From NCBI RefSeq assembly GCF_004010195.1, contig NC_057719.1:36679822-36699821 (forward strand): a stretch of DNA of 20,000 nucleotides, in the 5' to 3' direction. Below the pieces are notes generated by a model. It was not told where the DNA came from and searched no databases. It worked only from the letters and a program-made list of their open reading frames with translations. The position numbers were made by a program, and so were the translations under genes. Positions 3,229 to 20,000 of this stretch are shown here, in pieces (the first letter of the stretch is position 1; each line of letters starts with the position of its first letter). This stretch comes from Chiloscyllium plagiosum (taxonomy: Eukaryota).

Positions 3229-3272
3229 CTTGATTGTATCCAAAGGATATCCAACAGCGGTAGCAAGTCCAC
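3229..3272 (-). CDS. SLC25A47: SLC25A47-like coding exon 2 (44 nt, (G)GLATAVGYPLDTIK)
   Basis: cag acceptor and AAG/gtagtg donor; carrier signature Px[DE]xx[KR] (PLDTIK); 82-nt intron to exon 3; phase 1 start fits exon 1. Confidence 0.92.
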
Positions 3273-3465: not shown

Positions 3466-4097
3466 ATAGAGTCATAGAGGTGTACAGCATGGAAACAGAC
3501 CTTTCGGTCCAACCTGTCCATGCCGACCAGATATCCCAACACAATCTAGTCTCACCTGCCAGCACCTGGCCCATATCCCTCCAAACCCTTCCTATTCATA
3601 TACTCATCCAAATGCCTCTTAAATGTTGCAATTGTACCAGCCTCCACCACATCCTCTGGCAGCTCATTCCATACATGTANNNNNNNNNNNNNNNNNNNNN
3701 NNNNNNNNNNNNNNNNNNNNNNNNNNNNNNNNNNNNNNNNNNNNNNNNNNNNNNNNNNNNNNTGTCCTGTACAGCCGCAACATGACCTCCCAACTCCTGT
3801 ACTCAATACTCTGACCAATAAAGGAAAGCATACCAAACGCCTTCTTCACTATCCTATCTACCTGCGACTCCACTTTCAAGGAACCTGCAATCCAAGGTCC
3901 CTTTGTTCAGCAACACTCCCTAGGACTTTACCATTAAGTGTATAAGTCCTGCTAAGATTTGCTTTCGCAAAATTCAGCACCTCACATTTATCTGAATTAA
4001 ACTCCATCTGTCACTTCTCAGCCTATTGACCCATCTGGTCCAGATCCTGTTATAATCTGAGGTAACCCTCTTCACTGTCCATTACACCTTCAATTTC
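3466..4097 (-). mobile_element. HER1/CR1 LINE 3' part (spans small gap)
   Basis: KVESQVDRIVKKAFGMLSFIGQSIEYRSWEVMLRLYRT and VWNELPEDVVEAGTIATFKRHLDEYM are CR1 ORF2 C-terminal peptides; TCTATGAC-type tail. Confidence 0.9.
3680..3762. other. Assembly gap
   Basis: Run of N. Confidence 1.
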
Positions 4098-7075: not shown

Positions 7076-7093
7076 ATCAAAAATTACAGAAAG

Positions 7094-7424
7094 TTCTGGA
7101 TGTAGGTGTGTTCGCTGAGTTGGAAGGTTTGTTTTCAGATGTTTCGTCACCCTTCTAGGTAACATCAGTGAACCTCCGGATGAAGCACTGGTGGCATGGC
7201 CCACTTTTTGTTTATATGTTTAGGTTTCCTTTGGAAGCTCAGGAACCAAAGGAAACATAAACACAAAGAGAAAGCAGGCCATGCCACCAGTGCTTCATCT
7301 GGAGGCTCACTGAAGATGTTACCTAGTATGGTGATGAAACGTCTGAAAAACGAACCTTCCAGCTCAGCAAGCAAACCTACATTCAGAATGTCAACCTGAG
7401 CTACAAATCTTCTCAAAACTCACT
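7094..7424. mobile_element. Palindromic PLE insertion (second family) with 11-bp TSD
   Basis: Inverted arms 7094-7234 / 7246-7388, unpaired tail to 7424; ATTACAGAAAG at 7083-7093 and 7425-7435. Confidence 0.85.
7307..7346 (+). ncRNA. Minimal hammerhead ribozyme motif
   Basis: TCA-CTGAAGA-T-GTTACC-TAGTAT-GGTGAT-GAAA-CGTC-TGA; 3-bp stem I (TCA/TGA), 6-bp stem II with two G-U pairs. Confidence 0.7.
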
Positions 7425-8737: not shown

Positions 8738-8955
8738 ATTGAAAAATGTGGTGCTGGAAAAGCACAGCAGACCAGGCAGCATCCGAGGAGCAGGAGAATC
8801 GACGTTTCAGGCATAAGCCCTTCTTCAGGAATGAAGGGCTTATGCCCAAAACGTCGATTCTCCTGCTCCTCGGATGCTGCCTGGCCTGCTGTGCTTTTCC
8901 AGCACCACATTTTTCAAATCTGGTACTCCAGCATCTGCAGTCCTCACTTTCTCCT
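8738..8955. mobile_element. Palindromic PLE insertion with 15-bp TSD
   Basis: 85-bp inverted arms 8739-8823 / 8833-8917, 9-nt spacer, tail to 8955; AAGACCCTGCCCTCA at 8723-8737 and 8956-8970. Confidence 0.9.
8797..8832 (-). ncRNA. Minimal hammerhead ribozyme motif, sense to SLC25A47 pre-mRNA
   Basis: Reverse complement of 8801-8828 reads CTGAAGA A GGGC-TTAT-GCCT GAAA CGTC. Confidence 0.7.
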
Positions 8956-14060: not shown

Positions 14061-14330
14061 ATTCCATATTAAGATTGGAAGTGACACATTGTAGACCCAA
14101 ACAAGAATGCTAAACATAAACAATGTCATTTACATGATAGGGAGAGCTGGCTAAAGTCAAATGGGCAAGTATGCCAGTAATGTTTTCTACTGTTTATTTT
14201 AAACAATTCAAAATGTTCTAAAAAATATATTGTTTAAAAAATGTTCAGTAAGAAAGACCCTTCCACGACTTAGTAAAGAGCCTGAAAACAGTGTAATATT
14301 AAATGAAAAGGTTCAATGTTGCAAAGGAAA

Positions 14331-15190: not shown

Positions 15191-15419
15191 TTTTCAGGGT
15201 TAAAAAGTGAGGAATAATTTGAAAATTAATCACAAAATACAAAGGAAATACTGTAAAAATTCAAATTAGACAATACTCACCAGTTACTTTTTAAGCGGCC
15301 CTTCGGGTTCCGGGTGATTTGCTTCTATTCTAGTTTGATGGATACAGAGTTGGCTGATAAGTCCAAGGCACGAAGGATAACTGTTGCTTGGACGGTCAGT
15401 TGACTTGACTTTGCTTCTG

Positions 15420-16478
15420 CATTTTTCAAAGAATGTCTGTGTCTTCCTTAATGAGCCTTATCCCATTGTTTTATGACAGGGCAGTCATATTTGACAAGTT
15501 TGCTACTGGTCTTTGAGGATATAACAAGCAGAGATGATAAAGGGAAGATGTACAGATGTTGTGTATTTGGCTTTCCAGAACGCATTTGATAAAGTGCCAC
15601 ATAAAAATTTATTTGACAAGATAGGAGCTCATGATATTGCAATAATGTATTAGCATGGATTGAGGATTCATTAATACAAGATGGACAGAGTGAGAATTAA
15701 TGGGTCTCCTTTGGATTGGAAAAACCTAACTAGTGGAGTGCTACTAGATCCAGTTCTAGGGCCTTAATTATTTACCATCCATATTAATAACTTGGATGAG
15801 GGGCAAAGTCTAATGCATCCTTTACTGTTGACTGGGGGGGGGCATGGAATTTAAAAGTAATGTCTTGTTACAACTGTACAGGGTATTGGTGAGGCCACAC
15901 CTGGTATACAGTGTACAGTTTTGGTCTCAATGTAGTTAAGAAAGAATATACTGGCATTAGAGGCTGCTCAAAACATTCACTAGGTTGATTCTTAGGACAA
16001 ATAGACTGACTTATCAAGAATGGCTAACCAGTTTAGGCTTTTATTCATTAAAGTTTAGAAGAATGGTGGGTGGGGGTGAAGGTGGCAGCAGTGGCCTTAC
16101 TAAAACCTACAAGATTCAGAGGAGGCTTGACAGGATAGATATTGAGAAGATGCTTCCACTGCTGGTAGAATCTCAAATTAGGCGACATAGTTACAGAATA
16201 AGGGGACAACATTTAAAACTGAGATGCAAAGGAATTTCTGCTCCATGAAGGTAACAAATATCTGAAAGCCTCTACCCTAGAGAGTTGCGGAGGCTAGATC
16301 ACTGAACATATTTAAAGAGCAGGTAAATAAATTTTTGGTGTTTCAGAGAGTTGAAGGAGGATTATGATAAACAAAAGAGGATTTGAGGCCTGTGGCAAAT
16401 TGACCGTGACCTTGTTGAATGACCAGCAGACCCGAGGAGCTAATGATCCATTCCGAACCCTATTTTTAGTATTATGAT
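15420..16478 (+). mobile_element. Diverged CR1 LINE with internal deletions
   Basis: ttccagaacgcatttgataaagtgccaca (FQ.AFDKVP), aactagtggagtg, gtgaggccacacctg (VRPHL), ORF 15985-16248 LTYQEWLTSLGFYSLKFRRM. Confidence 0.8.
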
Positions 16479-17630: not shown

Positions 17631-18268
17631 CCACCATTGATGCTAACTAGTAACAGTTATCCTCTTGTTATCACTCTTTGAACTTCCTCTCATACTGATA
17701 TAACCCCTTAAACAAAATATCCAACTCTTGGCAATACTGACTTTATCATGAGTCCCCACAGCTTTGACTTTAATAAATAACCTTCCAAGTAGAACTTTGG
17801 ATTCTACCAACTACACACCTCTCCTTCGAAGGAATGCATCAATGACGAAAGACAGGGGTTTACACTAACCAAGAATCATTGCCCATTAGATATACTTTAT
17901 TATTTAAACTGTCCCTGGAAATGTGACAACATTTAGAAACATCAGACACAAATCATGTCCTGCAGCTCTTAGTAATGATCTTCCAACATTCTCGTGTGTA
18001 TCTGAATAAACAAATTTTCAATGGCAAACTATGAATTCTAACATGTACGACTTTAAAATTAGTATGTTCTTCACTAACAAAATAACGCTTAACTATATTA
18101 ATAAGTAACATTCAAGTCAATCCACAACTGAAGCAATGACAAAACTAGTGGAATTTTCCATTTTTTTAACATATAAAATCCTGTGTACCATCTGAAACTA
18201 ACAACTGTATGCGTGGAATAAATACTGATCATTTTCAAACACTTTAACGACAGAGTACCATTTCTTAC

Positions 18269-18305
18269 CTGCAAACCACCCAGCTAAGAAGTCAAGTAAA
18301 TACAT
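18269..18305 (-). CDS. SLC25A47: SLC25A47-like coding exon 1 (37 nt, [13 protein letters not shown])
   Basis: acaaaATG start, DFLAG helix-1 motif of this carrier subfamily, consensus donor CAG/gtaaga, phase 1 joins exon 2 (G+GT = Gly). Confidence 0.85.
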
Positions 18306-18329
18306 TTTGTGCCAAATGTCAACTTCTTC

Positions 18330-18712
18330 TCATCAGCAATTGCGAAATGACGGACCTTAGTTTGAATATACAACAGTCACCAGAGAAACTAAAACAAGAC
18401 CATAAACGAACAGGAGTAGTCTAATTAACTTGAGTTACGTAACACAAGTTGTGAAAATAACAGCAAAAACTGCTGCCCCTGAACGAAAAAAGCCGAGTGC
18501 CCGCATAAAAATTATGTAAGATCCGACTAGCGGCGGAAATAGCCGAGTCAGGGCGGAAATAGCCGAGTCAGTGCGGAAATAGCCGAGTCAGGGCGGAAAT
18601 AGCCGAGAAAGGGCGGAAATAGCCGAGACAGGGGGGAAATAGCCGGGTGTCCACGAACGCCGAAAATAAACGAGTAACGGTCGAACTCTTCGTCGGGAAC
18701 GTGGCTGGCGCT
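18330..18712 (-). promoter_or_regulatory. Putative 5'UTR/promoter, CpG-enriched, with PAR-bZIP D-box and C/EBP-like motifs
   Basis: GTTACGTAAC 18434-18443, ATTATGTAAG 18511-18520, ATTGCGAAAT 18339-18348; locally CpG-rich at 18480-18720 in an otherwise CpG-poor window. Confidence 0.6.
18531..18648. repeat. 20-bp minisatellite (GGGCGGAAATAGCCGAGTCA), about 6 copies
   Basis: Units start at 18531, 18551, 18571, 18591, 18611 and 18631; degenerate unit at 18481. Confidence 0.95.
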
Positions 18713-18732
18713 TGACGGGAAGTTTGATTTTT

Positions 18733-18986
18733 TTTTCATTTCCCTCGGTTTTATTTTGAGAACTGACAAAATGGACATTCTGCAATATACTGCAGCTTTG
18801 TTTGGTGCTAATAATTCACAAAATGGCAGTCATAAAACTAGTGTTCAACCCAACCTTACCTTTAACCGAGTATATGCACTTTCCAACTTGCAGTCTTTAA
18901 TGACACATTTTAAATTAAAAATAAAAGGCAACGACAAAGAAAAGTACTGTGCCCCAGCCCCATTATGTAGTTGGAGATTTGTAAAG
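18733..18986 (-). pseudogene. Retroposed poly(A)+ fragment (mRNA 3'UTR-like, or unrecognised LINE 3'UTR)
   Basis: Minus strand ends AATAAA (18755-18750), 13 nt, A9; flanked by an exact 20-bp direct repeat TGACGGGAAGTTTGATTTTT (18713-18732, 18987-19006). Confidence 0.7.
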
Positions 18987-19005
18987 TGACGGGAAGTTTG
19001 ATTTT

Positions 19006-19333
19006 TGTGATCAAAACAGTGAGGGGGAGGGTAGGGACTAAATCAAAATAAATCCCTGGTTTATTTTTTTTCCTTAAATCCCTGATTTATTTTTTTTACA
19101 GCAATGACAGTTGCACATTAGGGTCCCTGTTTATTTATTTATTTATTTTTCCTTAACCCCCGGTTAGGCGGTAGTGCTTATTTTATCCCCAGTACCCATG
19201 GTGTGTGTGTGTGCAGGTGTGAGACACAAAGTGCACGAATCTTTATTCAAATTCCACCACCAGGAAGATAGGAAAACACCCGGGTGGCCAGTGACAAACA
19301 CTGCCCTTCACCTCAAAGAGCAGTGCTGTGTGA
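19006..19333 (-). mobile_element. Rearranged Tx1-like 3'UTR fragment(s)
   Basis: 19006-19050 matches 19726-19770; ~19168-19333 matches ~19555-19730. Confidence 0.75.
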
Positions 19334-19348
19334 CGACGGGAAGTTTGA

Positions 19349-19953
19349 CTTATTTTTTCCAACACTCTGGTTCTTTTTTTTCTTTTTTTCTTTTTTCTTC
19401 TTTTTTTTTTAACCCAAATAAATCTCCTGTTTATTTTTTCCCCACACTACCACCTAAGTGCGATAGTGCTTATTTTTTCCAACACTCTGGTTCTTTTCTT
19501 TTTTTTCCCATGTTTATTTTTTTTTATTTTAACCCCCACACTACCACCTAAGTGCGGTAGTGCTTATTTTTTTCCCCAGCACCCATGGTGTGTGTGTGCA
19601 GGTGTGAGACACAGTGAAAGACACAAAGTGCACCAATCTTAATTCAAATTCCACCACCAGGAAGATAGGAAAACACCCGGGTGGCCAGTGACAAACACTG
19701 CCCTTCACATCAAAGAACAGTGCTGTGTGATCAAAACAGTGAAGGGGAGGGTAGGGACTAAATCAAAATAGAATTGGACGGAGAAATGATGCACTCCACT
19801 CCCTGAACAACTCCAGGGTGTTGATTGACACTGCGTGCTCCTTCTCCAAGGACACCCGGGCACTAACGTAGCCGTGGAAGAGGGGCAGGCAGTTGGCCCT
19901 AACGACCCCCTCCACGGCCCGCTGCCTCGACCTGTTGATGGCCAGTTTGGCCA
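19349..19953 (-). mobile_element. Tx1-like (L1 clade) retrotransposon 3' end with additional short stacked 3' ends
   Basis: AKLAINRSRQRAVEGVVRANCLPLFHGYVSARVSLEKEHAVSINTLELFREW resembles Tx1 ORF2 C-termini; A-rich tails; repeated cttattttttccaacactctgg at 19349 and 19469. Confidence 0.75.
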
Positions 19954-20000
19954 CCTCAGAGTGTATTTTTTTTTAGACAATACAGACCCAGCAAGCCCCC

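Follow-up and report, generated by a model that had tools for sequence, protein, structure and literature searches.

Likely repeated retro-insertion at a single native site upstream of a mitochondrial-carrier gene in the shark Chiloscyllium plagiosum

The DNA we have analyzed (the window in what follows) is a stretch of 20,000 nucleotides from the genome of Chiloscyllium plagiosum (assembly GCF_004010195.1, contig NC_057719.1, positions 36,679,822 to 36,699,821). It includes only 27 residues of a mitochondrial-carrier gene, in two short exons on the minus strand. The first coding exon (18269..18305) has 37 nt, starts with an ATG at 18305, reads MYLLDFLAGWFA and ends in a GTAAG donor. The second one (3229..3272) has 44 nt, reads GLATAVGYPLDTIK and is bounded by AG and GT. 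Both were recognized from their translation and splice ends, and we take them to belong to the SLC25A29/45/47/48 group, the original prediction having named the gene SLC25A47. Inside the long first intron, the minus strand of 15281-15440 contains CpG and ends in a GTGAGT donor: It might be an alternative or non-coding exon. Short repeats are found at 990-1075, 1780-1915, 8740-8950 and 7090-7400, two of them as inverted pairs; they resemble Penelope-type leaders. There are assembly gaps (N) at 1077-1771 and 3680-3762.

The region 18150-20000 was compared, at 80% likeness, with four of 21 listed sequencing runs: one set of contigs from each of three organisms (A, B and C), and one run of raw reads from A. 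These reads are about 4 in 100 of the run, with a single-copy depth below 1. In this comparison, pieces under about 20 letters may escape read alignment, and tails use up the loose letters. Organism A is very close to the window, with 2 differences in the 413 letters of 18150-18562, while B and C each differ in 21 of about 400 letters. The first coding exon has single-copy depth in the contigs of all three.

Upstream of this exon we find a CpG-rich region (18400..18727), with 50% GC and a CpG observed/expected ratio of 1.45, against 0.27 for the whole window. Its composition makes it a likely promoter. Part of the CpG excess is due to a tandem array detected with TRF at 18532-18645, with 5.7 copies of the 20-bp unit GGCGGAAATAGCCGAGTCAG, each of which, we assume, resembles an E2F/ETS site. 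Organism B does not align over 18550-18609, and in C the array is collapsed, with a high depth, so its copy number is likely variable. At the end of the region, the CHR-like hexamer TTTGAT is found at 18723-18728. According to the part of PMC4176359 that we cite, this variant bound DREAM above background in vitro, and a CDE/CHR element consists of a CHR hexamer with a CDE, [CGT][CG]5, four bases upstream. Here, the corresponding bases (18713-18718) are TGACGG, which do not fit the CDE pattern.

The hexamer overlaps a 14 nt word, GACGGGAAGTTTGA, which is found in three exact copies, at 18714-18727, 18988-19001 and 19335-19348. The 20,000 nt window contains no further match with up to two mismatches. 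Only 0.13 copies are expected at two mismatches, and none of 200 shuffled sequences reached three copies. The three copies had been reported in the original prediction, together with a CpG-rich promoter setting about 400 bp from an ATG, and both observations are correct: The distance between the word and the ATG at 18305 is 409 bp, and the CpG-rich region just described, to which the word belongs, is probably a promoter. We also agree that the site does not resemble an rRNA, tRNA or snRNA target, since a search of 18200-20000 against Rfam gave three matches, all with E >1 and far below the gathering scores. Neither the word nor its complement appears in the literature text searched, whose scope did not include subscription journals or Repbase Reports. 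A search by title and start of abstract, with the same scope, gave no paper on shark Tx1 target sites.

The three copies are not identical in their surroundings. Site copy 1 (18713..18728, plus strand), which reads TGACGGGAAGTTTGAT, is the left end of the stack. Site copy 2 (18987..19002, plus strand), a candidate target-site duplication of the first insert, shares with copy 1 the 20 letters TGACGGGAAGTTTGATTTTT, which include a T5 tract. Site copy 3 (19335..19348, plus strand) has the 14 letters only. It is preceded by an extra, stuttered GAC and followed by a C and a 10 nt piece of the 3' UTR of the LINE described below; there is no tract derived from poly(A). A T-rich tract and a different insert had been proposed after each copy, and the tract is found as T5 after copies 1 and 2, but not after copy 3.

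In B and C, the contig pieces from the upstream side include the whole word and stop at 18728, right after it; they also reproduce the depth bins. Two matched pieces of the B contig leave 51 of its letters unexplained. Since the upstream match ends in both organisms right after the word, the word is native upstream sequence, with TGACGGGAAGTTTGAT as the site, and the extra copies are best read as duplications. They are likely target-site duplications from repeated retro-insertion at this single native site. Inserts 1 and 2 are each flanked by the word on both sides, and the right end of insert 3 lies beyond the window.

Insert 1 (18728..18986, minus strand) has an AATAAA signal at 18755-18750 and an A9 tail at 18736-18728, with no recognized coding part. 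Depth on this insert is single-copy in the two relatives, B and C (37 against 35.2 and 19.4 against 18.6, respectively), and the sequence is found there in a separate context. The contigs which contain it have 1,991 letters in B and 5,841 letters in C, and only 18736-18988 fits the window. The letters outside the match (1,408 + 330 and 1,412 + 4,183) are unlike the window on both sides. In both contigs, the match ends at 18736, 14 nt past AATAAA, exactly where A9 begins. The other end of the match is at 18988, two letters into site copy 2, a 2 nt microhomology between the site and the 5' end of the mRNA. The duplication is 16–20 nt long. In organism A, depth on insert 1 is 13.9 against 5.6, and one contig ends exactly at 18988.

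Insert 1 is also better conserved than its surroundings, represented by 18150-18549. Taking B and C together, there are 9 differences in 499 letters, against 42 in 798 (combined Fisher p=0.0018). The values are 4/253 against 21/400 in B (p=0.020) and 5/246 against 21/398 in C, which alone is not significant (p=0.062, with two deletions left uncounted). We read insert 1 as a 5'-truncated mRNA retrocopy because it is single-copy in B and C, better conserved, surrounded there by foreign flanks, and its match stops at the poly(A) site. It is likely a recent retrocopy of the conserved 3' end of a cellular mRNA, present in A beside its source. In fact, it has several traits of processed retrocopies: poly(A) at the cleavage site, a target duplication and a source locus elsewhere. 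Insert 1 is not a Tx1 piece, although a Tx1-like element had been proposed for the site. We have also considered that it might be native promoter sequence, and have rejected this idea, as its B and C contigs do not continue into the promoter in the depth bins.

The last part of the stack contains a LINE (19531..19953, minus strand), with the last ~60 codons of ORF2, a stop near 19760 and the 3' UTR. A minus-strand reading frame (P0003, 19951-19802) is identical in 34 of 50 positions (68%) to the C-terminus of a homologous protein, P0016, which begins inside the reverse transcriptase. P0016 has matches to RVT_1 (E 4.8e-05) and zf-RVT (E 2.4e-04) which do not reach the curated cut-offs, and its Atlas neighbours carry the same families. 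All five of its matches among solved structures are of L1 ORF2p type (E 7e-07 to 2e-06), human L1 ORF2p being the best. Thus, the features of an L1/Tx1-type element, a LINE reverse transcriptase with a C-terminal zinc-binding region, are found by proxy, through P0016. P0003 itself matches no Pfam family, gives only leads below 0.8 in the Atlas, and one profile (A1) has no match among solved structures. The Tx1 label is tentative. Members of the Tx1 clade group with Tx1L, Keno, Kibi and Koshi in reverse-transcriptase phylogeny and have an N-terminal endonuclease of APE type, a part of the protein which lies outside both the ~60 codons in the window and P0016. No named Tx1 reference protein appeared in the protein searches. 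Homologues of the LINE end are found in whale shark, sawshark, sawfish and other cartilaginous fishes. DNA patterns of the LINE gave no loci in metagenome or viral contigs, and no relative of P0016 was found among 596 pattern matches in metagenome contigs. The end of ORF2 is also found inside annotated shark and ray gene models (P0007, P0008, P0011, P0017, P0018 and P0019; ripply2-like, FAM169B, KIF25 and others), which may reflect either exonization or annotation errors.

This LINE is very abundant. Raw-read depth on its 3' UTR is about 5,500-fold in A, which corresponds to 8,200–12,700 copies (~10^4) for a genome of 2.9–4.5 Gb. Since 1,588 raw reads continue past 19953, and 956 of 3,182 reads carry 19 nt which are missing in the window at 19798, the copy in the window is 5'-truncated and internally deleted. 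Truncation at the 5' end, an A-rich 3' tail and a multicopy state are all found. A shark Tx1-like element had been proposed here, and 19530-19953 is indeed the 3' end of a LINE. The proposal stands as far as a LINE piece of L1/Tx1 type is concerned, but not for the word as its target, as discussed below.

Insert 2 is made of pieces of the same LINE in an unusual order. The piece next to site copy 2, A' (19002..19050, minus strand), consists of 45 nt of the stop-codon and 3' UTR region, with an internal end, plus A4-5. It has one difference in 45 positions (19006-19050 against 19726-19770). A spacer region follows (19047..19150, minus strand), with three A-tracts, each then continued by a TAAA(C/T)(C)AGGGA word. 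It includes a 6 nt LINE tip at 19072-19077 and a 26 nt piece at 19098-19123 which does not belong to the LINE. This piece has its own A8 tail and sits between two spacer words: It is perhaps a second tiny copy of a cellular RNA. The rest of the insert is piece B' (19151..19333, minus strand), LINE 3' UTR which is 5'-truncated where A' ends. Compared with its counterpart in the LINE copy (19217-19333 against 19614-19730), it has 6 differences in 117 positions, a 12 nt indel and a 2 nt indel, and the terminal hairpin is different. The loop of this hairpin in B' (19151-19175) is turned around with respect to the consensus of loose ends in organisms B and C, a possible micro-inversion.

Read on the strand of the element, the order in insert 2 is B' (19333-19151), tail, spacers, A' (19050-19006) and A4-5, while the intact copy has the A piece before the B piece. 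Insert 2 is therefore a circular permutation, in which A' and B' overlap by 5 nt (about 3% by chance). A structured or self-cleaving 3' UTR was considered as the cause of the permutation but finds no support: The fold has a z of -1.50, 14 of 200 shuffles are as good, and there is no Rfam match. In organism B, loose ends before 19734 are seen in 73 contigs, and this is also where several joints end. The LINE family may therefore break, or exchange its 3' UTR, repeatedly at this point.

Insert 3 begins with a tail (19349..19530, minus strand) of LINE tips and A-rich tracts, which ends 10 nt into a LINE tip without poly(A). A 15 nt word is found twice (19359-19373 and 19479-19493), within an exact 29 nt repeat (19349-19377 and 19469-19497). 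The LINE tip at 19434-19478 has a hairpin nearly identical to that of the LINE copy which follows. Inserts 2 and 3 had been predicted to be different, but they are not different elements: Their shared pieces have only 6 differences in 117 and 1 in 45.

In both inserts, LINE sequence surrounds the foreign spacer words, which makes it improbable that these are native at this locus. Spacer-bearing contigs with small indels over 19073-19081 are found in A and C. The join from the spacer at 19420-19439 to a LINE tail, which is partly T-rich, is present in 9 raw reads of A (8 different starts) and in two contigs of C. Taken together, these joins and contigs suggest, to a modest degree, that LINE tails elsewhere in the genome are also followed by spacers of this kind. 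As each of the two inserts has its own repeated spacer word, the data suggest that both may be read-through copies of stacks located elsewhere.

The last part of the window (19954..20000, minus strand) has a 12 nt junction (19954-19965), then an A9 tract (19974-19966) with one end of another insert, so that the stack continues beyond the window. Such an insert had been predicted from the T tract near 19966, and an A-tailed insert end is indeed present; nevertheless, it is not flanked by the 14 nt word, the 12 adjoining letters being different. The ends of the compared stretch are covered by 30 raw reads, against a single-copy depth of about 1, so the insert end at 19975-20000 may be a low-copy repeat.

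We have also considered whether copy 3 could come from a plain tandem duplication of 18988-19333 and 19335-19730, which would have spoken against successive insertions. The stretches after copies 2 and 3 align with a score of 36, and 138 of 500 run-shuffled controls score as high, so this explanation is rejected. Piece B' need not be a local duplicate of its counterpart either, given the indels, the different hairpin, and the fact that 4,727 of 18,534 aligned reads are at least 95% alike.

A different question is whether the word is the target of the element throughout the genome. The bin containing the word and its T tract (18708-18769) has a raw-read depth of zero in A, against about 5,500-fold on the LINE. 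At least 709 raw reads (296 + 413) have loose T-rich 3' ends at 19513 and 19517, with a median of 42–43 letters, and the genome-wide loose 3' ends listed for the LINE (19513-19519) are T-rich, with an agreement of about 0.5. Joints with sides of 20–22 letters were aligned elsewhere, and no read lies on 18708-18769. For the purpose of comparison, a working criterion for a Tx1 target is its presence in >20% of flanks, as given in the section of PMC4494074 cited here. The 14 nt word does not reach this value, with a depth of zero against at least 709 loose-end reads, a count in which short pieces may be missed. The original prediction would be contradicted if the genome-wide flanks showed only generic A-rich sites, and this is in fact what we see, bearing in mind that short pieces may escape alignment. 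Contig depth on the bin exceeds that of the known pieces (33.6 in A, about one 20 nt piece in B and about one 30 nt piece in C), which could reflect a small number of additional loci carrying the word. A new sequence-specific target of genome-wide use is not supported: The site is likely a local hot spot and not the main target of the LINE family. Of the proposal that a Tx1-like element repeatedly hit this target, we keep the repeated retro-insertion at one native site but not the word as a sequence target.

The explanation we favour, which we consider fairly probable, is that the three copies are target-site duplications of successive target-primed retro-insertions at one native CpG-rich site, probably carried out by the abundant L1/Tx1-type LINE. 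The LINE endonuclease would nick the plus strand where TGACGGGAAGTTTGA(T) ends, and the T-ended 3' OH at the nick would prime reverse transcription on an A-ended RNA. The cDNA would then join the far end of the target through a microhomology of 2–3 nt, and repair would duplicate 14–16 bp, rebuilding the site beside a T tract suited to the next priming. In one event, the end of a cellular mRNA would be copied in trans (insert 1). In two others, the templates would be LINE RNAs whose transcription had continued across stacks of LINE tips elsewhere in the genome (inserts 2 and 3); such donors would explain both the foreign spacer words and the internal LINE ends of these inserts. The local hot spot might be due to open promoter DNA, together with a loose core, A and then T(A/C)(A/C)A across the junction, as at other junctions. 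In fact, a T-(A/C)-(A/C)-A start after an A-tract is found in 8 of 8 rows (seven motif, spacer and 19965 junctions plus 19500-19525), although the rows were chosen by hand. Instead of a target core, TAAAC after an A-tract may also represent the last unit of a (TAAA)n tail belonging to the LINE itself. Two further points stand against the explanation as proposed: The 5 nt overlap of A' and B' is not accounted for by read-through alone, and the near-identical hairpin at 19434-19478 and the exact 29 nt repeat fit local slippage equally well.

These same points suggest that part of the stack could come from one complex event or a local rearrangement, with only one or two true insertions. Template jumps and slippage in a single reverse transcription, or a small circle excised between the repeats and then re-inserted, would produce both the permutation of insert 2 and the repeats in the tail of insert 3, and the stuttered GAC before copy 3 points in the same direction as the overlap, the 29 nt repeat and the hairpins. 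However, there is no colinear homology after copies 2 and 3, as the 138 equally high shuffles indicate, B' and its counterpart differ by a 12 nt indel and the hairpin, and the source of insert 1 is unrelated. In target-primed reverse transcription, a template jump alone places no copies of the target between templates. We regard this alternative as unlikely, although it is the least unlikely of those we have considered. The most doubtful one is that a sequence-specific Tx1 family recognizes this word, in which case TCAAACTTCCCGTC would be expected after many LINE 3' ends. Three hits on one word, in less than 650 bp and in the same orientation, are what such a family would leave, and the extra contig depth on the word bin in A agrees with it. 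Many Tx1-clade elements show target preference, according to the portion of PMC4494074 used here. Against it stand the zero raw-read depth on 18708-18769 and the loose T-rich ends, none of them from a read on the word bin. Moreover, two other words are found after the LINE tips of the stack more often than the 14 nt word, which is single-copy in the window outside the stack. We give it very little weight.

A somewhat less improbable alternative, which we still consider doubtful, is that a promoter-bound protein or open chromatin guides the LINE to core promoters, where the sequence itself would matter little, so that LTR TATA boxes and host CpG promoters would both be hit. Three unlike words of 14–16 nt are each reused within the stack, and the native one belongs to the CpG-rich region, with a start codon at a distance of 409 bp. 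The site contains the TTTGAT hexamer, for which in vitro DREAM binding is described in the cited part of PMC4176359, but the bases upstream do not form a CDE. This is also a single locus, and some of ~10^4 copies are expected in promoters by chance. A LINE of this kind would rebuild whichever word it cut and seed new stacks with read-through copies of old ones and with cellular mRNA ends. If it were true, with young LINE copies enriched at host promoters, the finding would matter more and the targeting factor could be directly tested. To our knowledge, promoter homing is known only for LTR elements and P elements. For P elements, dimers near transcription starts are described in the part of PMC5932611 considered here.

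Returning to successive retro-insertion at one native site, the stack is a natural record of a LINE which reused one host upstream site, copied an mRNA end in trans and probably carried spacers from other stacks. It is also a warning: The recognition sequence of an element cannot simply be taken from the word which a stack repeats. Tandem insertions sandwiching a target duplication are already in print, and the shark stack adds a case to a known behaviour. The closest example is that of the Tx1-Mar LINEs and SINEU-3 of crocodilians, whose tandem insertions sandwich a target-site duplication and are read as sequential in the part of Kojima 2015 (PMC4494074) cited here. As in the shark, tandem insertions surround the target duplication and passengers are moved in trans by a Tx1-type LINE, so the shark stack may work in a similar way. 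However, the target of Tx1-Mar and SINEU-3 lies in a multicopy transposon and flanks 313 of 347 near-full SINEU-3 copies, according to the same text (PMC4494074). In the shark, the word belongs to the host and has a single copy, it is not connected with the LINE elsewhere by any raw read, and one of the inserts is likely an mRNA end.

Double insertions at one site are also known for the P-element, R1 and other non-LTR elements of Drosophila, as described in the part of McGurk and Barbash 2018 used here (PMC5932611). The target duplication in the tandem junction and the 5'-truncated non-LTR units are common features, and the enrichment of P-element dimers near transcription starts reported there may be compared with a stack near a likely promoter. 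On the other hand, the Drosophila cases are insect elements and mostly dimers of one family, while the shark stack has three mixed inserts at a vertebrate promoter region, with foreign spacers inside the inserts. In the human NF1 gene, recurrent L1-endonuclease sites are described in the cited part of Wimmer et al. 2011 (PMC3219598). There too, a single-copy host site is reused by a LINE without strict sequence specificity and with varied passengers (Alu, L1 and poly(T) in NF1). Nevertheless, the reuse in NF1 takes place in separate people and is due to human L1, while in the shark it is stacked on one allele and would be due to an L1/Tx1-type element.

A preprint (bioRxiv 10.64898/2026.06.26.734816) puts the number of retrocopies in cartilaginous fishes at 14,081, and associates retrocopies outside mammals with CR1 or Tx1. 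Insert 1 resembles LINE-made processed retrocopies in its poly(A) at the cleavage site, its 5' truncation and its target duplication, but it has no recognized coding part in which a loss of introns could be seen. L1 3' transduction is a known LINE behaviour. By comparison, the flanks which would have been transduced in the shark stack are other LINE tips and spacer words.
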